From Escherichia coli (GTDB lineage: Bacteria; Pseudomonadota; Gammaproteobacteria; Enterobacterales; Enterobacteriaceae): a DNA stretch of 64,000 nt. This document shows positions 21,583 to 41,515 of this stretch, piece after piece. Numbering within the stretch: the stretch's first letter is position 1; every line of letters starts with the position of its first letter. Under the pieces are notes generated by a model. That model was not told the DNA's origin and ran no database searches. It saw nothing but the letters and a program-made list of their open reading frames with translations. Made by a program: the position numbers and the translations under genes. The DNA is taken from the NCBI RefSeq assembly GCF_048403405.1, contig NZ_CP183129.1; one strand, given 5' to 3'.

Positions 21583-22848
21583 TTACGGTTTGAAGTCCAA
21601 TGGCGCGTTTTTGAACACTTCATATACTGCCTGGCTTGGTGGTTTCGGGATCTTCGCAAGTTTAGCTGCTGCCAACGCAGCCTGACAAAGTGCGGGATCG
21701 CCACCTTCAGGTTTGATATCCAGTAACATACCATCGGGTGCCAGTTTTATGCGCAGCGTACAGGTTTTGCCTGCATAGGACGATGCGTCATAGAACTTAC
21801 TTTCGATAGCAGATTTAATCTGCCCGGCATAGTTATTGATATCGGCCCCTGATGCGCCATTGTTTTTAGTATTACCACTCCCGGCTGGCGAAGCATTGTT
21901 CCCTTTCGCCCCTCCCCCCGTTTTCGGTGCATTCTTACCAGAGCTTAGCTCACCGAAAATATCATCTGCCTCTGCGGCAGCTTTTGCTGCAGCGGCTTTT
22001 TCAGCTGCTGCTTTTGCAGCTGCCGCTTTTTTGTCTGCGGCGGCTTTTTCTGCCGCTGCTTTCTTATCAGCTGCTGCCTTTTCAGCAGCCGCTTTTTCTG
22101 CTGCTTTTTTGTCGGCTGCAGCTTTCTCTGCTGCCGCTTTCTTATCAGCTGCAGCCTTTTCAGCAGCCGCTTTCTTCTCAGCTTCTGCTTTGGCTTTTTC
22201 AGCAGCTTCAGTTGCCGCTTTCTTTCTTGCTTCAGCTGCAGCTGCTTCTGCCGCTTCCGCTTTCTTCTTCAGTGCCGCCGCGGCTGCCTCGACTTTTTTC
22301 TGCGCTTCGGCTGCGGCTTTGGCGGCTTCTGCTTCTGCTTTTTTCTTCGCGTCTGCAGCCGCTTTCTTCGCAGCTTCTTCCGCAGCTTTAGCATCCGCTT
22401 CGGCCTTCGCTTTAGCATCTGCCGCCGCTTTCGCTGCCGCTTCTTCCGCTTGCTTCTGCTTTAACTCGGCCTGTTTTGCGGCTTCTTCAGCCTGCTTTTT
22501 CTGTTCCTGAGCAGCTAACCGCTCTTTCTCAAGTTGCTTCAGGCGTTCCTGTTCAGCCGCTTGTTTCTCACGCAGTTCTTCAGCAGCCTGCTGTTCCTTC
22601 ATCTTGCGCTGCTCATCAGAACGCTTCGCGCTTGATTCCTGGCTTTGCATGCGTTTGTACTGCTCAACTACCGCACCTGAATCAACCATGACAGCGTCGA
22701 TGGATGAACCACCGCCGCCTCCGGCTGAAGCTTCTATATTCTCATCGAACGAACTCCAGATCAGCGCCGCAAATAAGATGACATGCAGCACTGCTGAAAT
22801 AATTATCGCCCGCTTGAGCTTGTCGTTTTGTTCGGTTGCCTTTGACAC
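21583..22848 (-). CDS. tolA: Tol-Pal system protein TolA
   Basis: 421 aa; N-terminal TM anchor, long Ala/Lys/Glu-rich helical domain II, C-terminal domain III. Confidence 0.93.
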   Translation of the reverse strand: MSKATEQNDKLKRAIIISAVLHVILFAALIWSSFDENIEASAGGGGGSSIDAVMVDSGAVVEQYKRMQSQESSAKRSDEQRKMKEQQAAEELREKQAAEQERLKQLEKERLAAQEQKKQAEEAAKQAELKQKQAEEAAAKAAADAKAKAEADAKAAEEAAKKAAADAKKKAEAEAAKAAAEAQKKVEAAAAALKKKAEAAEAAAAEARKKAATEAAEKAKAEAEKKAAAEKAAADKKAAAEKAAADKKAAEKAAAEKAAADKKAAAEKAAADKKAAAAKAAAEKAAAAKAAAEADDIFGELSSGKNAPKTGGGAKGNNASPAGSGNTKNNGASGADINNYAGQIKSAIESKFYDASSYAGKTCTLRIKLAPDGMLLDIKPEGGDPALCQAALAAAKLAKIPKPPSQAVYEVFKNAPLDFKP

Positions 22849-25008: not shown

Positions 25009-26148
25009 TTAGTACAGAGAGTGGGTGTTACGTTCAATATCTTCTTTGGTGATACGACCGAACATTTTCCAGTAACACCAGGCGGTGTAGAGCAGAATGA
25101 TCGGTACCAGAACCACCGCAACCCAGGTCATGACGTTAAGCGTCAGCTGGCTGGAAGTTGCATCCCACATTGTCAGACTTGCGTTCATCATGGTGCTGGA
25201 CGGCATCACAAACGGGAACATTGCGATACCGGCTGTCAGGATGATGCAGGCCAGCGTCAGGGAGGAGAACACAAACGCCCACGCGGCTTTATCCATACGT
25301 GCAGTCAGGATGGTCAGCAGCGGCAGAACCACACCCAGTGCCGGAATAGCCCACAGAATTGGCGTGTTGTTGAAGTTAACCAGCCATGCGCCAGCTTCAC
25401 GAACCACTTCTTTATTCAGTGGGTTAGAGGCTGCGTAATGGTCCATTGTCGATTTCACGACATAACCATCGATACCGTACATCACCCATACGCCAGCCAG
25501 TGCGAAACAGACCAGTGTCACCAGTGCCGCCACCTGAGCCGTTGCACGGGTACGCAGGTGCAGTTCGCCCACGGTACGCATTTGCAGATAGGTTGCGCCC
25601 TGAGTAATGATCATCCCTACGCTCACCACGCCTGCCAGCAGGCCGAACGGGTTAAGCAGCTGGAAGAAGTTACCGGTGTAGTACAGACGCAGATATTCAT
25701 CAACGTTGAACGGTACGCCCTGCAACAGGTTACCGAACGCTACACCAATCACCAGCGGCGGAACGAAGCTACCAATGAAGATGCCCCAGTCCCACATGTT
25801 ACGCCAGCGGGTTTCTTCAATCTTGGAGCGGTAGTCAAAACCGACCGGACGGAAGAACAAAGACGCCAGCACGAGGATCATCGCCACATAGAATCCGGAG
25901 AACGCAGCGGCATAGACCATCGGCCAGGCAGCAAACAGAGCGCCGCCCGCGGTGATAAGCCAAACCTGGTTACCGTCCCAGTGTGGTGCGATGGAGTTAA
26001 TCATAATTCGACGCTCGGTGTCGTTACGACCGAGGAAACGGGTGAGCATGCCCACCCCCATGTCGAAACCGTCAGTGACTGCAAAACCAATCAGCAGAAC
26101 GCCAACCAGCAGCCACCAGATAAAACGCAATACTTCATAATCGATCAT
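25009..26148 (-). CDS. cydB: Cytochrome bd-I ubiquinol oxidase subunit II
   Basis: 379 aa; recognised as CydB. Confidence 0.96.
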   Translation of the reverse strand: MIDYEVLRFIWWLLVGVLLIGFAVTDGFDMGVGMLTRFLGRNDTERRIMINSIAPHWDGNQVWLITAGGALFAAWPMVYAAAFSGFYVAMILVLASLFFRPVGFDYRSKIEETRWRNMWDWGIFIGSFVPPLVIGVAFGNLLQGVPFNVDEYLRLYYTGNFFQLLNPFGLLAGVVSVGMIITQGATYLQMRTVGELHLRTRATAQVAALVTLVCFALAGVWVMYGIDGYVVKSTMDHYAASNPLNKEVVREAGAWLVNFNNTPILWAIPALGVVLPLLTILTARMDKAAWAFVFSSLTLACIILTAGIAMFPFVMPSSTMMNASLTMWDATSSQLTLNVMTWVAVVLVPIILLYTAWCYWKMFGRITKEDIERNTHSLY

Positions 26149-26163
26149 TTGACGACTCCTGTC

Positions 26164-27732
26164 TTAGCGTGCCGGCTGAGTAGTCGTGGAAGACTGCTCA
26201 AAGTGATAGCGACCGGTTTTCAGGCTGCTTGGGCCGAGGCGTGCAAACTTGAACATTAAGAACAATTCTGCCACCAGGAACAGGGTATACAGGCCGCAAA
26301 TCAGCACCATTGAGAAGATGAGATCGCCTGCGGTCAGTGACGAGTTCGCCACAGCTGTCGGCAGCACTTCACCGATAGCCCACGGTTGGCGGCCATATTC
26401 AGCCACGAACCAGCCCGCTTCTACAGCAATCCACGGCAGCGGAATACCATACAGCGCGGCGCGCAGCAGCCATTTTTTCTCGCCAATGCGGTTGCGGATG
26501 ACACTCCAGAAAGAGAGCGCGATGATTGCCAGCAGCAGGAAGCCACACGCCACCATGATACGGAACGCGAAGTACAGCGGCGCTACACGCGGAATGGAGT
26601 CTTTGGTTGCCTGTTGAATCTGCGCTTCAGTCGCATCAGCCACGTTTGGCGTATAGCGTTTCAGCAGCAGACCGTAACCGAGGTCTTTCTTCATGCTATT
26701 GAACTGGTCACGAACCGCCTGGTCGGTAGAACCAGAACGCAGTTGTTCGAGCAGAGAGTACGCCTTCATCCCGTTACGAATGCGTTCTTCATGCTGCACC
26801 ATCAGTTCTTTCAGGCCGATAACTGGAGTATCCACGGAACGCGTTGCAATGATGCCCAGCGCGTAAGGGATCTGGATCGCAAATTTGTTCGTCTCCTCTT
26901 CCTGATCAGGAATGCCGAACAGAGTAAAGGCAGCAGGCGCAGGTTGCGTTTCCCACTCGGCTTCAATAGCAGCCAGTTTGGTTTTCTGCACGTCGCCCAT
27001 TTCGTAACCAGATTCATCACCCAGAACAATAACAGACAGAACGGCAGCCATACCGAAGCTGGCAGCGATAGCAAAGGAGCGTTTAGCGAAGGCGAAGTCA
27101 CGACCTTTCAGCATATACCATGCGCTGATACCGAGGATGAACATCGCGCCAGTCACATAACCAGACGCTACAGTGTGAACGAATTTCACCTGAGCAACCG
27201 GGTTAAGCACCAGCTCGGAGAAGCTCACCATCTCCATACGCATAGTTTCAAAGTTGAAATCGGACGCGATTGGGTTTTGCATCCAGCCGTTCGCAACCAG
27301 AATCCACAGTGCGGACAGGTTTGAACCGAGCGCCACCAGCCAGGTGACACACATATGCTGAACTTTACCCAGACGATCCCAACCGAAGAAGAACAGACCT
27401 ACAAAGGTGGATTCGAGGAAGAAGGCCATCAGACCTTCGATTGCCAGCGGCGCACCGAAGATATCCCCTACATAGTGGGAATAGTAAGACCAGTTAGTCC
27501 CGAACTGGAACTCCATAGTCAGACCGGTAGCCACACCCAGAGCGAAGTTGATACCAAACAACTTGCCCCAGAACTTGGTCATATCTTTATAAATCTGTTT
27601 GCCGGAAAGGACGTAGACCGTTTCCATAATGGCCAGCAGGAACGCCATACCGAGCGTCAGTGGCACAAAAAGGAAGTGGTACATCGCGGTCAAGGCAAAC
27701 TGTAAGCGCGACAGTTCGACTATATCTAACAT
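26164..27732 (-). CDS. cydA: Cytochrome bd-I ubiquinol oxidase subunit I
   Basis: Start at the second Met ([20 protein letters not shown]..., 522 aa); recognised as CydA. Confidence 0.96.
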
Positions 27733-28069
27733 CATGACTCCTTGCTCATCGCATGAAGACTCCGAGAGTGAACCCCGTTAGAAAGGGTCACACGCATGCC
27801 CCAATACAAAATTATTTGCTCGCCTCTATCGTTGCCATTTCATCAAAAGAGGAAAAGACAATGATAAAAAAGTTACAAATATGTTAATGAATAAACCAAA
27901 TTGATCCCGTAATTATATTACGCCGCAAAATCCTTACAATAAACAGGTTTTTATTGAGCAAATTTGCATTTTTCGACAGTGATCAATTTATAGCGAAATT
28001 GTCACGATCTCACCAATTTGATCTACGACAATTTATCGTGTTTTGCAGATTTTTTTCAAGAATTAAAAA

Positions 28070-28083
28070 TTGATTTATATCAA
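28070..28083 (-). promoter_or_regulatory. Candidate FNR site in the cydA upstream region
   Basis: Perfect TTGAT-N4-ATCAA (ttgatttatatcaa) about 340 bp upstream of cydA; a weaker half-site match ttgatctacgacaa lies at 28018-28031. Confidence 0.55.
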
Positions 28084-28537
28084 AACCAACCAAATATGTT
28101 AATTATGTATAAACCATAGATCATTGGTGATTTTATTGTTAATTTATTGTGAAATATTTATGCAACACAATTATTACAATGAAAAGGTATAGATAAAAAA
28201 CCAGTGTTTTATTTAACAGAACCGCCTTATCCACTTTTTATAATACCAATTGATTAGATTAGCCAATTTGTTGCTATTTTACATAACATATTTTTATCAA
28301 AGTTAATTGATTGTTGCGTTTATGAGCACCGGCCGTAAGCCCGTTATGTTATTGTTTCATTAGTAATAATCACTTAAATGTATCGATGAAACAGGTATGA
28401 CTTAGCGGGAGTGATTGTTTCTGAGTGAACAGAGACCACTTTCGCCTGATAAATGAAAAATGAGCGATTTTTGCAAGTTAGTTTTTCTATAGCCGAGTAC
28501 GCTCAGCGCCTCGCTTGATTACAATGAGGTTGCTGCT

Positions 28538-29482
28538 ATGAGTCCTGATAATATCAGTTCTGCTGTCAATCGCTTCTCAGGTTGGCCATCTAATGATCCT
28601 CTAAAAACAGATAAAGAATCAATGACATCACCCATGACTGTGCAGGTAATAAAGATGATTGCCGCCATCCTTGACCCACATCGGATAGTCGTTGGAATCG
28701 ATACACTTTATACAACGCAGCGCGAAACATTTACCTCAGAGAGTCAACAGCTCATTGAATCAGCATTGCAAACACTTCATGTGATGAATTTAAATAACCT
28801 GGAAACAAATCTCGATGAGGAAGGTCACTATCTGGCTTTTGGATATAACGTTGACACTCCTGACAGAATAACCGTTTCTGCTTATAATGAAAAAAAGCCT
28901 GGCTGCTATGGCCAATGTCTTTTAATACAGGATGACGAAACAGACTTATTTAACCTGATAAAAGTTAAAATTTTTGAAGCCAGGCATAATTATGTCGCTC
29001 AATTGATGAGCGATCCGGAATTTATGTTCAAATTTAGTTATAGCGCTCAACAAAATAGATTAGAACCTCATCTTCTGGTTCCCACTTATTTCCCTCTAAA
29101 AACAAACGAACCGGTTACGCAAGAGGATGTACTGTTACTTTATCGTTTCTTTAAAATGGATGGTGATTTTAATATATTAACATCAGATGAATACATGAGT
29201 ATCATGACACCTCTGATGAAGTGTGAGCGCAGCATCCACGACCACAACAGGTATGTGACGGGCAAAGATACCCTTCTTCTGGACTATCCTCCTTCTGGTA
29301 ACCAGATATATTTCCATATTTTTCCTGACGAATCAGCAACACTAGTCCTTTATTTTTCAAACAATGACATTGAATGTTTCGTCTTTGAAAGAGATATTCC
29401 GAGCCAGTATCGCTTTTTCAAAATGTTTACCAATCTGGCACTGGTTATTGATCAGTTAACCGATGCCAATCAAATACTTTAA
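28538..29482 (+). CDS. Hypothetical protein, 314 aa, no recognisable domain; in an AT-rich block
   Basis: Long ORF in a visibly AT-rich region; polar Ser/Pro/Asn-rich N-terminus (MSPDNISSAVNRFSGWPSNDP), no signal peptide or TM segment seen; plausible purine-rich RBS-like stretch upstream (aatgaggttgctgctATG). Confidence 0.6.
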   Translation: MSPDNISSAVNRFSGWPSNDPLKTDKESMTSPMTVQVIKMIAAILDPHRIVVGIDTLYTTQRETFTSESQQLIESALQTLHVMNLNNLETNLDEEGHYLAFGYNVDTPDRITVSAYNEKKPGCYGQCLLIQDDETDLFNLIKVKIFEARHNYVAQLMSDPEFMFKFSYSAQQNRLEPHLLVPTYFPLKTNEPVTQEDVLLLYRFFKMDGDFNILTSDEYMSIMTPLMKCERSIHDHNRYVTGKDTLLLDYPPSGNQIYFHIFPDESATLVLYFSNNDIECFVFERDIPSQYRFFKMFTNLALVIDQLTDANQIL

Positions 29483-29562
29483 TTTTTATATATTCCCTGT
29501 GGCAAATATTGCTAAACAATGCCCGGGGATTAATTTTTATTACTCACGGAAAGATTTAAATA

Positions 29563-29985
29563 ATGATCCCATCTCAAATCTCTTTCAACACCCTTCCTGT
29601 CAATGCAACATACGCTTCAGAGACAACAGTTGACACACAAAAATTCTCTGACATCCTCTACTCAGCGGGGTGTTCCCTAAAGGATCTGGCTTATTTGAGC
29701 AGATGTCTGGCATCAATACATCCGACTATCGCCAAAAACATTTATGAAACAGAAAATCTCAGCGATCAAAAATTACTACATATTGATTGCCGTAGTACAA
29801 ATGAAATCAAGATAAATATCTTTTTTGGTCAACAACGAGAAGGATTAATTGAAATTAGTTCTGACACAGTCATTTTTTCGATACTGTCTTCATTGATTGA
29901 CTCCACCATTTCTAAATTTCAACACCAAAACCCCGTTAACGGTTCTGTAAATCCTGACCTATTGTATGAGGATTATACTGATTAA
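29563..29985 (+). CDS. Hypothetical protein, 140 aa, acidic, no recognisable domain
   Basis: ORF 80 bp downstream of the 314-aa ORF on the same strand; by my count about 17 Asp+Glu against about 9 Lys+Arg; same AT-rich context. Confidence 0.5.
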   Translation: MIPSQISFNTLPVNATYASETTVDTQKFSDILYSAGCSLKDLAYLSRCLASIHPTIAKNIYETENLSDQKLLHIDCRSTNEIKINIFFGQQREGLIEISSDTVIFSILSSLIDSTISKFQHQNPVNGSVNPDLLYEDYTD

Positions 29986-30532
29986 ATCCCTCCTGTCGCG
30001 AAAAATGGCCTGCGTTATTGCCAGACGTAATAAAACTTTTGATTAACGTTTCTCGTACTGGTAGCACCTTCATGTACTTTTCTTTTTTACGAAAAATCAA
30101 AAGAGCTAACAAAGGTCATAATTCGCATGAATCATTAATTATTTGTTATTTTCAACATTATTTTTACATTAAGCAGAGATGAATTGCAGTGAAATTCGAC
30201 TTAACTTTTATGAAATGCATTTACTCATGGCTAAAGCCACGTCACAAAAATGCAAATTAGAAGTAGATCACAAATATCTCAATACATCAAATCAAGTTAA
30301 TTTTAAAAATTTAATATTCATGACATTAGTTGACATAACACACTGAATTATAATGAGAATTTGAAAACACACTTTAAACAATCATTTCCCGAAAGACATT
30401 TTGAAAATAGATCAATTGCAACATTACGGTCAGATAAAGACACTCCTGTGATATTAAACCTGTGCCGTTATGAACGGCCATAAATACGACGTGTGTAACT
30501 TATTTTACTCTCTGTCTTACAAAGGATTACCC

Positions 30533-30982
30533 ATGAAGAAAGCAACACTTGTGATTGGCGTTATTGGCGCGGACTGCCATGCAGTAGGCAATAAAGTTCT
30601 GGACCGCGTTTTTAGCAACCATGGCTTCAGAGTCATTAATCTGGGCGTAATGGTCAGCCAGGACGAATATATTGATGCTGCCATTGAAACTGGTGCTGAC
30701 GCGATTGTCGTCTCCTCTATCTATGGGCATGGCGATATCGATTGTCTGGGCATGCGCGAACGCTGCATTGAGCGTGGGCTGGGTAACATCCTGCTCTATG
30801 TGGGCGGTAACCTGGTGGTCGGAAAACATGACTTCGCTGACGTGGAAACCAAGTTCAAAGAGATGGGATTTGATCGCGTCTTTGCCCCAAGTCATGACTT
30901 AGAAGATGTTTGTCAGCTGATGGCCCACGATATCAACCAACGTCATGACGTTGATACTCGCATTCTTGAAGAGGCAATCTGA
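30533..30982 (+). CDS. mamA: Glutamate mutase sigma (S) subunit, B12-binding component
   Basis: Start set at [21 protein letters not shown] (good RBS aaaggattacccATG); carries the cobalamin His-ligand motif DxHxxG (DCHAVG); close resemblance to clostridial GlmS/MutS as I recall them. Confidence 0.9.
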
Positions 30983-32370
30983 TGCAAATCGTCTCTGTCG
31001 ATATTGGATCGACGTGGACCAAAGCAGCCCTCTTCGCCCGGGAGGGGGACGCGTTAACGTTGGTTAACCACGTACTGACCCCAACCACCACCCATCATCT
31101 GGCGAAGGGTTTTTTCTCCAGCCTGAACCTGGTGTTAAACGTAGATAATGCCCTCCCCCTGTTTAACAACGGTGAGGTTGCATTGAAGTATTCCTCCTCT
31201 GCCAAAGGTGGGCTGGCGGTTGCCGCAATGGGGTTGGTGCCATCTATCACCCTGGAAACCGCGAAAGTAACCGCTCACTCTGCGGGGGCTAAAATTGCGC
31301 AATATTACGCCTACAAGCTGAACCGCCGTGATATCCAGGCACTGGAAGAAACGCAGCCCGATATTCTCTTGTTCACCGGCGGCACCGACGGCGGAGAAGA
31401 AAGCTACGGCCTGAATAACGCCCGTGTGCTGGCAGAATCCAAACTCGACTGCGCCATTATTTATGCCGGAAACCGGGATATTCAGGACGAGGTGCAGGAG
31501 ATCCTAGGGCATAAAGACCTGACCATCGTCGACAACGTTCTGCCCGATCTTGACCATCCGAACCCTTTAGCTGCACGCCAGGCTATCTGCGACATATTCC
31601 TTAAACGCATCGTTAAAGGGAAAGGGCTGGATGTCATTGTTGATAAAACAGGCGAAGAACCAATGCCGACACCATGGACGGTCTTTGAACTGGTTAAGGC
31701 AATCAGTAACGTCGATCACAGCTGGAAAGAGTTCATGCTTATCGACATGGGCGGCGCAACCACCGATGTCTATTCAGCCTGTGCCAACACGCTCTCGCCC
31801 GACACCGTTTTACACGGCGTACCGGAACCCTTCGTGAAACGGACGGTGGAAGGCGATCTGGGAATGCGCGTCTCGGCAATGGTGGTTGGTGAAAGTGCGA
31901 AAGAGTTAGTCAATGTGAATTTTGCTCAGCAACCCGCACAGCTGGACGCTTTTTATCATTACCTCCGTCATCTAGTCGCTCATCCCGACTACTTACCCGC
32001 GAATGTAGAAGAAAAATATTTCGATACCGTCCTGGCCGGACTGTGTGTGGGTTATGCCACCGAAAGACATGCGGGCACCAAAAAAGAGGTCTGCACCTGC
32101 GTCGGCAATGTCGATTTACAGATGGGACGTGACCTGACAACCGTGCGTAAAGTCGTCGGATCCGGCGGATGGCTCTCGCGTGCCAGTCAGTTCGATATGC
32201 ATCACTGGTTGAAATACCGCGAGTTAAACGACGACGGTAAACGCATTCTCTTACCGACCGAATTTGAATATTACCGCGATTCCCGGGGGCTATTACCACT
32301 GCTGGCAAACGTCGCCAGAGTCGATCCGCTGGCCGCCGCGCGCACCAGTATTCAATGCTTAACCCTATAA
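30982..32370 (+). CDS. glmL: Glutamate mutase-associated L component (MutL/GlmL-like, putative reactivating chaperone)
   Basis: 462-aa ORF whose ATG overlaps the S-subunit stop (ATGA); sits between S and E as in clostridial mutS-mutL-mutE; N-terminus [18 protein letters not shown] is an ASKHA-type phosphate-1 motif. Confidence 0.75.
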   Translation: MQIVSVDIGSTWTKAALFAREGDALTLVNHVLTPTTTHHLAKGFFSSLNLVLNVDNALPLFNNGEVALKYSSSAKGGLAVAAMGLVPSITLETAKVTAHSAGAKIAQYYAYKLNRRDIQALEETQPDILLFTGGTDGGEESYGLNNARVLAESKLDCAIIYAGNRDIQDEVQEILGHKDLTIVDNVLPDLDHPNPLAARQAICDIFLKRIVKGKGLDVIVDKTGEEPMPTPWTVFELVKAISNVDHSWKEFMLIDMGGATTDVYSACANTLSPDTVLHGVPEPFVKRTVEGDLGMRVSAMVVGESAKELVNVNFAQQPAQLDAFYHYLRHLVAHPDYLPANVEEKYFDTVLAGLCVGYATERHAGTKKEVCTCVGNVDLQMGRDLTTVRKVVGSGGWLSRASQFDMHHWLKYRELNDDGKRILLPTEFEYYRDSRGLLPLLANVARVDPLAAARTSIQCLTL

Positions 32371-35078: not shown

Positions 35079-36449
35079 ATGGCTCGTTCTTTTAAAGTCT
35101 TATCGCCAACGGCAATCCTCGGGTATGGATTCCCGGAAGAGAGCTTCCGTAAAGCGATGGCAGAATCGCCCGATCTGATCGCCGTTGATGCAGGCTCTTC
35201 CGATCCTGGCCCCCACTACCTCGGGGCGGGCAAACCGTTTACCGATCGCGCAGGGGTCAAGCGCGATCTGCGCTATATGATCACCGCAGGCGTGCAAAAT
35301 AATATACCGGTGGTGATCGGAACGGCTGGCGGTTCTGGTGCCGCACCACACCTGGAGTGGTGCCGAGAAATAATTCATGAGATTGCCCAGGAAGAGCACC
35401 TCTCGTTCTCAATGGCGCTGATCCCGGCAGACGTTGACAAAGCCATCGTCCACCAGGCGCTGGATAACGGCAAAATCACGGCGCTGGAGTTTGTCCCGCC
35501 GTTAACCCACGACGCGATTGACGAAAGTACGTATATCGTTGCGCAAATGGGCATCGAACCCTTCCAGCGGGCGCTGAAAGAAGGCGCGCAAGTGGTGCTG
35601 GGCGGGCGCGCTTACGACCCGGCCTGCTTTGCTGCGCTTCCGATCATGCAAGGCTTTGATGAAGGTCTGGCGCTGCATTGTGGGAAAATCCTTGAATGCG
35701 CGGCAATCGCCGCAACGCCCGGCTCAGGCTCTGACTGTGCGATGGGCATCATTGATGACAACGGCTTTACGCTGAAGACATTTAATCCGAAGCGTAAATT
35801 TACCGAAACGTCAGCGGCTGCACACACACTGTATGAGAAATCCGATCCCTACTTCCTGCCTGGACCTGGCGGCGTGTTGAACCTGAAAGGCTGCACATTT
35901 AAAGCGGTCAATGACAGCGAAGTGTACGTCAGCGGTTCTAAGCATGAAGAAACGCCGTATGCCCTGAAACTGGAAGGTGCGCGACGAGTGGGCTTCCGCT
36001 GTCTGACCATCGCAGGAACGCGCGACCCGATCATGATCGCCGGGATCGATAAAATCATCGATGAAGTCAAAACCAGCGTTTCGCGTAACCTGTCGCTCGA
36101 CGATGACAGCATTCGCATCAATTTCCACCTGTACGGCAAAAACGGGGTGATGGGAGACCATGAACCGATGCAAACTGCCGGGCATGAGCTGGGGATTGTC
36201 CTTGATGTAGTTGCACCGACCCAGGAAATTGCCAACAGCGTTTGCTCGCTGGTGCGCTCTACCATGCTGCACTACGGCTATGAAAACCGCATCGCTACCG
36301 CAGGTAATCTGGCGTTCCCGTTCTCCCCTTCTGATATCCAGGGCGGGCCGGTATACGAATTTTCCATATATCACCTGATTGAAGCCAACGACGCTCTGCG
36401 TTTTGATTTCCATATTGAACAGGTGACGCCAGAAGGAGTTCAGGCATGA
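35079..36449 (+). CDS. Uncharacterised protein, probably DUF1446 / AtuA-like family
   Basis: 456-aa ORF starting 4 nt after the MAL stop; family assignment is from memory of AtuA-like N-terminal features and is not verified. Confidence 0.5.
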   Translation: MARSFKVLSPTAILGYGFPEESFRKAMAESPDLIAVDAGSSDPGPHYLGAGKPFTDRAGVKRDLRYMITAGVQNNIPVVIGTAGGSGAAPHLEWCREIIHEIAQEEHLSFSMALIPADVDKAIVHQALDNGKITALEFVPPLTHDAIDESTYIVAQMGIEPFQRALKEGAQVVLGGRAYDPACFAALPIMQGFDEGLALHCGKILECAAIAATPGSGSDCAMGIIDDNGFTLKTFNPKRKFTETSAAAHTLYEKSDPYFLPGPGGVLNLKGCTFKAVNDSEVYVSGSKHEETPYALKLEGARRVGFRCLTIAGTRDPIMIAGIDKIIDEVKTSVSRNLSLDDDSIRINFHLYGKNGVMGDHEPMQTAGHELGIVLDVVAPTQEIANSVCSLVRSTMLHYGYENRIATAGNLAFPFSPSDIQGGPVYEFSIYHLIEANDALRFDFHIEQVTPEGVQA

Positions 36450-36763
36450 AACAGTCAATTGTCTCACTGGCGCAAGTCATTCGTTCGAAAAATGCCGGAC
36501 CTTACGAACTGGTTTTAGATATTTTATTTAAAACCAAAGAAAACTATGAGCGTGTCAAATCATCAGGGCAATTAACCCCAGAACTGATCGCGCGCTTATA
36601 TCATGTTGAACCTGACTTTATTCATCGTATTGTCTGGTTTGATCCTTCTAACGCAGTAAAAATCGTCATGCCACGAGATATTATCTCCGGGAATGTAGGT
36701 GACAATGATGTCTATGGTGCACAGCAACATGCACCTTTATTAAATATGAGTTTCGATTTGTAA
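36446..36763 (+). CDS. Small uncharacterised protein, possibly DUF4387, coupled to the upstream ORF
   Basis: 105-aa ORF whose ATG overlaps the upstream stop (ATGA); family name is a tentative recollection. Confidence 0.45.
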   Translation: MKQSIVSLAQVIRSKNAGPYELVLDILFKTKENYERVKSSGQLTPELIARLYHVEPDFIHRIVWFDPSNAVKIVMPRDIISGNVGDNDVYGAQQHAPLLNMSFDL

Positions 36764-36846
36764 AAATCCGAATACTTTTAGCCAACTGACATCCCGTCAC
36801 TTATTGCAGTTCAACACTTCAGCTATTTGTAAGGTTGTAATAGCAG

Positions 36847-36878
36847 GTAGATGCCTGAATCTCTATTCGGGCATCTAC
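36847..36878 (+). terminator. Intra-operon stem-loop (possible partial terminator or attenuator)
   Basis: 9-bp perfect stem gtagatgcc / ggcatctac with a 14-nt loop, followed by a U-rich but interrupted tract (ttctcctgattctgattt); lies between the small coupled ORF and the transporter. Confidence 0.4.
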
Positions 36879-36923
36879 TTCTCCTGATTCTGATTTATCG
36901 CCGTGCACCTGATGGAGGAAAAA

Positions 36924-38204
36924 ATGAAGAAAATAAGTTTAACCACGATGATTCTTTTGGCGCTGGTACTTGGAATGATTATCGGCGTAGTGCTCAATAA
37001 CACTGCTTCACCGGAAACCGAAAAACTCTATGCGCAAGAAATATCGATATTCACGACGATTTTCTTACGACTGATAAAAATGATTATCGCTCCGTTAGTG
37101 GTCTCTACCCTGGTGGTAGGTATAGCTAAAATGGGCGATGCCAAAGCCCTTGGTCGTATTTTTTCTAAAACACTCTTTTTATTTATTTGCGCCTCATTGC
37201 TGTCAATTGCCTTAGGCTTGATAACAGTAAATTTCTTCATGCCAGGCACAGGAATTAATTTTGTTGCACACGGAGCCGAAACCACCGGAGTGGTCGCGTC
37301 AGAACCCTTTACGCTAAAAGTATTTATTTCGCATGCTTTCCCCACCAGCATTGTCGATGCCATGGCGCACAATGAAATTTTGCAAATCGTGGTGTTCTCA
37401 ATTTTCCTCGGCTGTAGCCTGACGGCGATTGGCGAGAAAGGCAGCGCCATCGTTCACGCCTTAGATTCGCTGGCACATGCCATGTTAAAGCTCACTGGCT
37501 ACGTCATGCTCTTCGCTCCCCTGACCGTATTCGCTGCTATTTCAGCATTGATTGCTGAACGAGGACTGGCAGTTATGGTGAGCGCCGGGATCTTTATGGG
37601 TGAATTTTATTTCACCATGTTATTACTTTGGGTGCTGCTTATCGGTCTGGCCATCGTTTATGTTGGCCCCTGCATCAGACGCCTGACCCGCGCCCTTTCG
37701 GAACCCGCCCTGCTGGCATTTACCACATCCAGTTCTGAAGCGGCTTTTCCGGGAACGCTTGAAAAACTGGAGCAATTTGGCGTTTCCCCCAAAATTGCCA
37801 GCTTTGTCTTACCCATTGGCTACTCATTTAATCTTGTTGGATCAATGGCCTACTGCTCCTTCGCCACAGTTTTCATCGCCCAGGCCTGCAATATCCATTT
37901 ATCCATCGGTGAGCAAATCACCATGCTGTTGATCCTGATGTTGACCTCGAAAGGAATGGCTGGCGTACCACGCGCCTCAATGGTGGTTATCGCCGCCACG
38001 CTCAACCAGTTCAATATTCCGGAAGCGGGGCTGATCTTGCTGATGGGCGTTGATCCGTTCCTTGATATGGGGCGTTCCGCGACAAACGTCATGAGCAACG
38101 CAATGGGCGCTGCGATGGTGAGTCGGTGGGAAGGCGAACATTTCGGCGAGGGTTGTCGGGGTAAAGCATTAAAACCCAATGAATCGAACGTTGCTCTGCC
38201 CTGA
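36924..38204 (+). CDS. Dicarboxylate/amino acid:cation symporter (DAACS family; GltP/DctA-like)
   Basis: Start at MKKISLTTMILL with RBS ggagg 5 nt upstream; about 426-aa polytopic protein; LRLIKMIIAPLV and surrounding TM pattern typical of DctA/GltP family carriers. Confidence 0.8.
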   Translation: MKKISLTTMILLALVLGMIIGVVLNNTASPETEKLYAQEISIFTTIFLRLIKMIIAPLVVSTLVVGIAKMGDAKALGRIFSKTLFLFICASLLSIALGLITVNFFMPGTGINFVAHGAETTGVVASEPFTLKVFISHAFPTSIVDAMAHNEILQIVVFSIFLGCSLTAIGEKGSAIVHALDSLAHAMLKLTGYVMLFAPLTVFAAISALIAERGLAVMVSAGIFMGEFYFTMLLLWVLLIGLAIVYVGPCIRRLTRALSEPALLAFTTSSSEAAFPGTLEKLEQFGVSPKIASFVLPIGYSFNLVGSMAYCSFATVFIAQACNIHLSIGEQITMLLILMLTSKGMAGVPRASMVVIAATLNQFNIPEAGLILLMGVDPFLDMGRSATNVMSNAMGAAMVSRWEGEHFGEGCRGKALKPNESNVALP

Positions 38205-40609: not shown

Positions 40610-41515
40610 TTACATCTCCTGCGGTACGACCGATTTCGCCAGCAACCATTCACGAAATTGCTGCAAGTGCGGCGAGTCAGACTTCTCTTCCTGCCACGTC
40701 ATAATAAAACGATTACCGGTACGAATAGGCACATCACAGGGAATCACCATATCGCCACTATCCAAATCATGTTGAATAGCGAACCGTGGTAACAGCGCCA
40801 CGCCGAGATTAGAGCGCACGGCGGCAATCAGCATTGAAAGCAAATCGAAACGTGGTCCGTTATTGACCAGCGGACTGCTAACGCCAGATAAAGCAAACCA
40901 CTCTTCCCAGCCAGTAATACGGGTGCTTTGATGCAGAAGTGGTAACTCAGTAAGCAGTTCTGCCACTGACAGTTTTTGATCGGACATTGCAAGCAAACTG
41001 CCGCTGCATACCGGCAAAATCTCCTCATCAAAGAGATATTCTACTTCCGCCCAGGGCGCGCAAAAATTTTCGCGCATAATGACAGCATCGTACTCCCGAT
41101 TAAGAAAATCGCCGTTATTAGCTAAAGAATGAATATTAACAATAATATCGGGATGTAACTTTGTGAATTCATGTAAATTTGGGATTAACCAGTGGGTACT
41201 AAAAGTAGGATTAACGGCAAGTTCAATAACCTGAACCGTAGGCTGCCAGGTCATAATGGTATTGGTATCGCGTTCCAGCTTATTTAATGTTTCTTTTACT
41301 ATCCCCAGGTAATACTTCCCTGCATCATTAAGAAAAATACGTTTTTTAGAGTGTGAAAATAACGGAGTATGTAAAAATTCCTCCAGCGCACTCACTTGTC
41401 TGAATACAGCACTTTGGGTTAACGCTAACTCCTCTGCCGCTCTGGTATAACTTTCATGACGTGCGACGACCTCAAAAGTCACCAGCAGCTCCGTTTTAGG
41501 TATTTTTCCTCGCAT
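40610..41515 (-). CDS. LysR-type transcriptional regulator
   Basis: 301 aa; N-terminal HTH (ESYTRAAEELALTQSAVFRQVSALEE) and LysR substrate-binding domain. Confidence 0.88.
   Translation of the reverse strand: MRGKIPKTELLVTFEVVARHESYTRAAEELALTQSAVFRQVSALEEFLHTPLFSHSKKRIFLNDAGKYYLGIVKETLNKLERDTNTIMTWQPTVQVIELAVNPTFSTHWLIPNLHEFTKLHPDIIVNIHSLANNGDFLNREYDAVIMRENFCAPWAEVEYLFDEEILPVCSGSLLAMSDQKLSVAELLTELPLLHQSTRITGWEEWFALSGVSSPLVNNGPRFDLLSMLIAAVRSNLGVALLPRFAIQHDLDSGDMVIPCDVPIRTGNRFIMTWQEEKSDSPHLQQFREWLLAKSVVPQEM

Follow-up and report, generated by a model that had tools for sequence, protein, structure and literature searches.

What occupies the AT-rich DNA between cydA and the glutamate mutase (glm) operon in some Escherichia coli chromosomes, and does it belong to either neighbour? 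We examined this question in a 64,000-nt stretch of E. coli DNA (contig NZ_CP183129.1 of RefSeq assembly GCF_048403405.1), here called the window, in which positions 27700-30500 are 100% identical to strain TUM14771. The locus carries two open reading frames on the same strand, ORF1 (314 aa) and ORF2 (140 aa), which are separated by 80 nt. A preliminary description made from the letters of this DNA had placed the two ORFs at the cydA-proximal edge of a glutamate mutase island, and had likened them to an effector with its chaperone or a toxin with its immunity protein. Our analysis indicates that the pair is probably an old, Escherichia-restricted, AT-rich two-gene orphan unit that is independent of cyd and glm, weakly constrained and repeatedly lost. 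Approximately one fifth of complete E. coli genomes carry it, including O157:H7, O55:H7, O145:H28 and the enteropathogenic E. coli (EPEC) strain E2348/69, and Escherichia albertii carries ORF1 alone. The pair lies between two operons that are important for gut respiration and glutamate use, and any function that it has would be genus-specific.

Two Escherichia orphan genes and the constraint on them

The two predicted frames, whose products begin MSPDNISSAVNRFSGWPSN (ORF1) and MIPSQISFNTLPVNATYASETT (ORF2), proved to be real same-strand ORFs. The chance of a 314-codon open frame, calculated from base composition, is ~1e-9. Aligned to its E. albertii copy, ORF1 shows 65% protein identity and zero indels over 314 codons; when the 213 substitutions between the two copies were simulated neutrally, the frame was still open in 6 of 5000 runs. 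Of 19 sliding windows across ORF1, 17 had better conservation at codon positions 1 and 2 than at position 3. The ratio of nonsynonymous to synonymous substitution rates (dN/dS) was 0.37-0.47 for ORF1 (against O157:H7, a 92%-identical E. coli allele and the E. albertii copy) and 0.19-0.40 for ORF2 within E. coli, compared with 0.00-0.05 for cydA and glmE. Intact copies were found in O157:H7, IAI39, O145:H28, A34, L26, ECONIH1 and E2348/69, and full-length frames predominate among the copies sampled from E. coli and E. albertii. Judged by these sequence comparisons, both ORFs are genuine protein-coding genes under weak purifying selection.

Neither product contains a domain that we could recognise, which agrees with the preliminary description. 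Pfam gave no usable match for ORF1 or ORF2 (best E = 0.14), NCBIfam and PADLOC gave no match for either protein, and PHROGs gave one match only, to a PHROG of unknown function (E = 0.056). A word-indexed search of 5.8 billion protein clusters returned Escherichia proteins only, all named 'hypothetical protein', with ORF2 homologues confined to E. coli and Shigella, and an exhaustive phmmer search of 1.84 billion representatives returned only fragments of the same Escherichia protein. In a one-genome-per-species scan, ORF1 was present only in E. albertii, Escherichia sp. MOD1-EC7003 and two metagenome-assembled genomes. The latter two (L006 and L007, labelled Collinsella sp. and Citrobacter sp.) carry ORF1 that is 100% and 99% identical to E. 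coli; their copies are most likely the result of binning contamination.

A phage or plasmid origin of the pair was considered and rejected. The tblastn search against phages gave no match, and the matches in the plasmid collection PLSDB were one 730-kb and two ~4.9-Mb E. coli records (CP088669.1, NZ_CP141089.1, and NZ_CP134663.1), which look like mislabelled chromosomes or chromosome fragments because at 0.73-4.9 Mb they are far larger than plasmids.

Structure comparison added no relatives. Profile searches against PDB found nothing under E = 0.9. The AlphaFold models of ORF1 reached a predicted local distance difference test score (pLDDT) of 58 and a predicted template modelling score of 0.51, with the five models in disagreement; the AlphaFold2 model of ORF2 reached a pLDDT of 40 and suggests, at this low confidence, three helices followed by three strands and a final helix. 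A fold search with these poor models matched no known fold. The similar order of secondary structure in ORF2 and in both halves of ORF1 had raised the idea that ORF2 is a copy of an ORF1 domain or that ORF1 is internally duplicated; this was rejected, as hhalign gave E = 0.047 at 1% probability and the local alignment scores fell within the shuffled range. To the extent that these searches of sequence and predicted structure can tell, ORF1 and ORF2 are orphans with no relatives beyond Escherichia, and their orphan status is upheld.

The polar N-termini reported earlier were also found: Ser, Thr, Pro and Asn make up 12 of the 25 N-terminal residues in both proteins, and 26% and 31% of the whole ORF1 and ORF2 proteins, respectively. 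ORF2 has two charged residues among its first 25. Neither protein contains a hydrophobic stretch (highest Kyte-Doolittle 19-residue mean 1.25 in ORF1 and 1.52 in ORF2), and both products are predicted to be acidic soluble proteins that lack a signal peptide or membrane segment. ORF2 is small and acidic, as had been stated, but charge does not tell the two proteins apart (pI 4.69 for ORF1 vs 4.65 for ORF2).

Two further features of the proteins were recorded. The motif M-x-P-[DS]-[NQ]-[IL]-S begins ORF1 (28538-28561), ORF2 (29563-29586), and the E. albertii copies (L002:10906-10932), with differing codons; it could be an N-terminal signal or a chance resemblance (rough post hoc p ~0.01). In an ORF1 comparison of 20 alleles from E. 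coli and E. albertii, the residues Cys127, His150, Cys229, Glu230, His234, Asp235, and His260 are invariant, which makes them candidates for mutagenesis and, by themselves, no evidence of catalysis.

An Escherichia-only segment between cydA and glmS

The strongly AT-rich block of the preliminary description is present: the GC content is 0.30-0.40 across positions 27750-30500 (500-nt windows) and approximately 0.50-0.57 on either side, in a window of 0.507 overall. Its composition differs from that of the flanking genes. ORF1 has a GC content of 0.382 and a third-codon-position GC (GC3) of 0.356, and ORF2 of 0.369 and 0.340, which places the pair 12-14 points under the genome; the glm genes have GC 0.49-0.55 and GC3 0.51-0.61. 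By the atypical base composition used to recognise genomic islands (GC 0.37-0.38 vs 0.51 for the window) the pair would qualify. No integrase, tRNA target, or convincing flanking direct repeat was annotated or found around the segment, and the protein, species-representative, phage, and plasmid searches found no donor or related copy in a phage, a plasmid, or another genus. An inverted repeat of 24 nt (28397-28420 and 30376-30399) was examined as a possible pair of mobile-element ends and rejected, being only 75% complementary with its right arm in Salmonella-shared DNA; it is probably a chance occurrence.

The block does not, however, form one acquired unit as had been supposed. Its left ~400 bp is the cydAB control region, which shares 90-100% identity with E. 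albertii as far as ~28085, and homology on the cyd side extends to 28108 in K-12, 28150 in Salmonella, and 28083 in another enterobacterium. Its right end is conserved DNA upstream of glm, with matches at 30376-30457 and 30523-30598 to Salmonella (L020) and from 30391 onward to the other enterobacterium (L021 and L022) and Citrobacter koseri (L019). The segment in between (28150-30375) is matched neither at the DNA nor at the protein level by the cydA-glmS spacers of these four loci. In Salmonella and the other enterobacterium, glmS adjoins cydA in divergent orientation across spacers of 1216 and 847 bp, respectively, which lack ORF1 and ORF2. Since glm stands beside cydA there without the ORFs, the pair is better described as an insert of its own within a syntenic spacer than as the edge of a glm island, and its composition, different from both neighbours, makes a separate origin likely. 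Comparison of these loci indicates that a glm cluster next to cydA is the syntenic arrangement in several enterobacteria and not the edge of an E. coli island.

We examined next how far the pair and the glm operon travel together. Of 5426 complete E. coli genomes, 1135 carry the pair and 1135 the glm operon; physical adjacency alone would yield these equal counts. At ≥99% identity the pair occurs in 360 genomes from humans, poultry, and wastewater. Outside this set the two part company. In E. albertii, cydA and ORF1 are followed by a remnant of ORF2, then by an outer-membrane-like gene and sucD, and a glm operon is missing; ORF2 is mostly deleted, its homology stopping at window position 29588, 26 nt into the gene, and ORF1 is 314 aa long in 13 of the 15 cluster members among the matches listed. 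In EPEC E2348/69 both ORFs are intact and ISEc13 cuts the glm operon right after glmS. The reverse is seen in Escherichia sp. MOD1-EC7003 (cryptic clade; L009), where the glm operon is intact and both ORFs are broken: ORF1 is interrupted by a 122-bp enterobacterial repetitive intergenic consensus (ERIC) element (L009:8349-8470) and by frameshifts, and a second copy, in inverted orientation, takes the place of the 5' 300 bp of ORF2 (L009:9090-9219). We take these ~125-bp repeats to be ERIC elements from their resemblance to the consensus. Together with Salmonella, C. koseri, and the other enterobacterium, which have glm and no ORFs, these loci show the pair and the glm operon decoupled across taxa; the Escherichia cases indicate that the two were lost independently.

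Inactivation of the pair itself occurred independently in at least five settings. Frameshifts in relatives, which the preliminary description would have counted against the ORFs, do exist: ORF1 is frameshifted in the E. albertii type strain, and individual E. coli genomes have ORF1 or ORF2 frameshifted or contain insertion sequences (IS) of the IS4 family. Even so, most copies remain intact and under purifying selection. The site is occupied by mngRAB in K-12. In LF82 the first part of the segment, to 28373, is retained and the remainder is lost; the stretch kept upstream of ORF1 measures ~270 bp.

Several rearranged loci deserve separate mention. In LF82 (L004:8673-9362) the ORF1-upstream remnant is followed by a 48-nt match inside glmS (L004 8916-8963) and then by a gene for a tetratricopeptide repeat (TPR) protein; the remnants of both sides look like a scar left by deletion of ORF1-ORF2-glm. 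In the derivative of EPEC E2348/69 examined here (L018:4002-6392), truncated mngA and mngR lie beyond ISEc13, so that together with its truncated glm operon this B2 strain holds pieces of both alternative contents of the sucD-cydA interval. The gene that follows the ORF2 remnant in E. albertii (L002:11786-12562) encodes 258 aa with a signal-peptide-like start and no Pfam match; its product may be an outer-membrane protein, and in the type strain (L008) the gene has shrunk to a 114-aa remnant. E. coli Br_112_kylling (L017:1-3501) has IS4-family (ISVsa5-like) elements inside ORF1 and just 3' of ORF2, which truncate ORF1 and lengthen the ORF2 frame to 178 aa.

Taken together, these observations are best accommodated by an old orphan unit. 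The ORF1/ORF2 segment sits in the spacer that, in other Enterobacteriaceae, is all that lies between the divergent cydA and glmS; it appears to predate the split of E. coli and E. albertii, and since then to have passed down mainly by vertical descent, with loss or decay recurring in individual lineages. ORF1 is the part that selection keeps, and ORF2 is an accessory partner, given that ORF1 is kept alone in E. albertii. At 31-38% GC the segment is probably bound by H-NS and silenced under laboratory conditions, as judged from its AT content only, and as a consequence the pair would be expressed only in particular conditions. No plus-strand terminator-like site was found between the ORF1 stop and glmS, and read-through from the ORFs into the glm operon is therefore possible. 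The pair stands outside the glutamate mutase pathway and the cyd operon and appears functionally independent of both. Fast protein evolution and recurrent loss suggest a dispensable, niche-dependent accessory role, for which a protein-binding or interaction factor seems more likely than a core enzyme.

Several points weigh against this reading. A dN/dS of ~0.4 indicates weak constraint; the variable sites of ORF1 within E. coli are distributed 45/16/46 over the three codon positions, with position 1 about as variable as position 3; ORF1 evolves faster than its own upstream spacer (78% vs 85% nucleotide identity to E. albertii); and decay in several lineages indicates that the genes are dispensable. 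No consensus plus-strand promoter was found upstream of ORF1, and promoter-like matches in the region are at chance level. The paper texts and supplements that we searched contained no expression, H-NS binding, or protein-level data on ORF1 or ORF2. Vertical inheritance with loss was inferred from a handful of loci and no phylogeny, and recombination between Escherichia lineages may have contributed. Finally, the explanation names no biochemical activity, and one cannot be assigned from these data.

Positions of the features and neighbouring observations

The coordinates of the locus are collected in Table 1. Past ORF2 the gene order is glmS, glmL, glmE, and methylaspartate ammonia-lyase, all downstream of an ORF2-glmS intergenic region with a GC content of 0.318. 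RefSeq starts glmS at 30533, i.e., 547 nt downstream of ORF2 and on the same strand as the ORFs. The mechanical ORF call is longer (30470-30982, 170 aa); RefSeq and the homologues from other genera start with MKKATL (30533, 149 aa). The shorter form is likely the gene, since conservation with Salmonella resumes at 30523 and the RefSeq and homologue starts agree. Rfam gave no match within 27000-31000.

Table 1. Features of the cydA-glmS interval and its left flank in the window.
Feature	Position	Strand	Remarks
cydB	25009-26148	-	
cydA	26164-27735	-	GC 0.527
cydAB upstream control region, AT-rich, conserved	27736 to ~28130		Outside the orphan segment
Escherichia-only AT-rich segment, ~2.2 kb	~28150-30375		Holds ORF1 and ORF2; GC 0.30-0.40
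Conserved 5' flank of ORF1	28436-28537	+	84-90% identity to E. albertii; ORF1 itself 78%
Shine-Dalgarno-like GAGG	28526-28529	+	8 nt 5' of the ORF1 ATG; read off the sequence
ORF1	28538-29482	+	314 aa; predicted acidic soluble orphan protein, pI 4.69; the better-retained gene of the pair
Weak Shine-Dalgarno-like GGAAAG	29548-29553	+	9 nt 5' of the ORF2 start; putative, read off the sequence
ORF2	29563-29985	+	140 aa; predicted acidic orphan protein, pI 4.65; a dispensable partner of ORF1
AT-rich spacer 3' of ORF2	29986-30375		Escherichia-specific; missing from Salmonella and Citrobacter
glm operon upstream region, conserved	30376-30532	+	Outside the orphan segment

Three compositional features were noted elsewhere in the window. 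A second, milder AT-rich patch (GC 0.39-0.45) lies at 36250-37250, between a DUF4387 gene and a dicarboxylate symporter gene. The gene for a LysR-type regulator at the far end of the cluster (40610-41515) also has a low GC content, 0.446. Positions 21750-22750 show an extreme AT skew (to -0.74) at normal GC; in the O157 annotation, the gene at the corresponding place relative to cydA is tolA (minus strand), whose Ala/Lys/Glu-rich central domain would explain the skew.

The glutamate mutase cluster has been described in many enterobacteria and other genera in the FumD paper (PMC4682846), where fumD is ECs0757. The Sakai transcriptome paper gives cydA as ECs0768, and from these two anchors the ORFs should be approximately ECs0766 and ECs0765. 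One section of the FumD paper and text searches of it (PMC4682846) yielded no mention of the ORFs, and neither did the other paper texts and supplements searched.

Alternative roles and comparison with known systems

The boldest alternative to an old, independent orphan unit is unlikely, and it takes two forms. In the first, ORF1, alone or along with ORF2, would found a new Escherichia-specific family engaged in host interaction or conflict, e.g., a hitherto unrecognised secreted substrate marked by the shared M-x-P-[DS]-[NQ]-[IL]-S start, or a thiol-dependent enzyme with Cys127/His150 or Cys229/His260 at its centre. In the second, the pair would have arisen de novo, or from an unsampled source, in the cydA-glmS regulatory spacer and would influence the expression of the flanking operons, one respiratory and one fermentative.

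It is rather doubtful that the ORFs are functionless relics, either of a decaying old insertion or of chance frames in an AT-rich spacer. The constraint is weak, and seven of the eight nucleotide differences between ORF1 and its E2348/69 copy change the amino acid; the independent inactivations, the lack of homologues beyond Escherichia in our searches, and the lack of a confident AlphaFold fold would also suit relics. Against this, ORF1 has accumulated 35% protein divergence across 314 codons with no indel, full-length copies greatly predominate in the E. coli and E. albertii samples, and the selection tests contradict it, though the constraint that they detect is weak.

We consider it improbable that ORF1 is a type III secretion effector with ORF2 as its small acidic chaperone, or that both are secreted substrates. 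The polar N-termini, the paucity of charge at the start of ORF2, and the shared N-terminal motif encoded by differing codons would fit secretion signals, and the size and pI of ORF2 would fit a chaperone. The pair is intact in O157:H7, O145:H28, and E2348/69, which carry the locus of enterocyte effacement (LEE), ORF1 is also in E. albertii, and rapid evolution is typical of host-interaction proteins. However, Pfam, NCBIfam, and PDB revealed no similarity to an effector or chaperone family, no fold matched, and the predicted order of ORF2 (at pLDDT 40) differs from the class I chaperone pattern. ORF1 is equally acidic, and since E. albertii keeps ORF1 and loses ORF2, a chaperone role, if any, would be dispensable. 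The pair is also retained in IAI39, which we take to be an extraintestinal strain lacking LEE, and in the 360 genomes from varied sources, many of them non-EHEC isolates; its distribution tracks phylogeny and locus linkage and not pathotype. Secretion or delivery genes are not adjacent, and N-terminal composition is the same kind of evidence as that on which the preliminary description had drawn.

It is improbable to the same degree that the two genes make up a conflict module, whether a toxin with its antitoxin or immunity protein or something else, e.g., an anti-phage system yet to be characterised. Two fast-evolving, sporadically lost genes on one strand of AT-rich DNA, at a chromosomal spot of variable content (mngRAB in K-12, the TPR protein in LF82), have the look of such a module. 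Retention of ORF1 after loss of ORF2 would suit a toxin ORF2 with ORF1 as an orphaned antidote; the opposite assignment is contradicted by E. albertii, which has a full-length ORF1 and a mostly deleted ORF2. No PADLOC, Pfam, or NCBIfam match links either protein to a toxin, antitoxin, or immunity family, and no cdi, rhs, vgrG, PAAR, type VI secretion, or defence genes lie nearby, the neighbours being the housekeeping and metabolic genes cydAB and glm. The 80-nt gap and a 314-aa protein are atypical of type II toxin-antitoxin systems, and toxins tend to be basic, unlike these two acidic proteins. For neither the effector/chaperone nor the toxin/immunity proposal did we find positive evidence. 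Least probable is that the pair is co-transcribed with the glutamate mutase (mesaconate pathway) operon and assists or regulates it. Such a role would suit the shared strand, the 547 nt to glmS with no terminator-like site in between, and the equal counts in E. coli (explained by adjacency); it is opposed by the sharp difference in composition and by each side occurring with the other absent or damaged: glm with no ORFs in three other enterobacteria, ORF1 with no glm in E. albertii, the pair with a truncated glm in E2348/69, and glm with broken ORFs in MOD1-EC7003.

The analysis thus separates the pair from the glm cluster, shows the synteny of that cluster with cydA, and removes the support for effector/chaperone and toxin/immunity roles. 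Set against known systems, the pair resembles the glutamate mutase/methylaspartate (mesaconate) cluster of O157:H7 (PMC4682846) in being its same-strand neighbour, co-inherited within E. coli, and differs in composition and in that each occurs without the other across taxa. With type II toxin-antitoxin and polymorphic toxin-immunity systems it shares a two-gene, same-strand, AT-rich, variable, and sporadically lost arrangement, but not their protein sizes, spacing, charge, family matches, delivery domains, or neighbouring secretion genes. A non-LEE type III effector with a class I chaperone (CesT and SycE families) is likewise a larger protein followed by a small acidic one, with polar N-termini, in enterohaemorrhagic E. 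coli, EPEC, and E. albertii; the pair differs from this in lacking sequence or fold similarity, in losing the putative chaperone where ORF1 is kept, and in its location, which is not a prophage or exchangeable effector locus. It is presumably also kept in strains lacking LEE. The closest likeness is to the orphan genes on AT-rich, presumably H-NS-silenced DNA of enterobacteria, with which the pair shares low GC and GC3, restriction to one genus, fast evolution, recurrent loss, and a variable spot. It departs from them in having no integrase, tRNA, or flanking direct repeat, in lying within the regulatory intergenic region of two divergent operons, and in appearing old (before the E. coli/E. 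albertii split) instead of recently acquired. The pair itself is newly described and uncharacterised; it belongs to the familiar class of lineage-restricted orphan genes on AT-rich DNA, and the locus cleanly exemplifies an old orphan locus under weak constraint and is not a new system.

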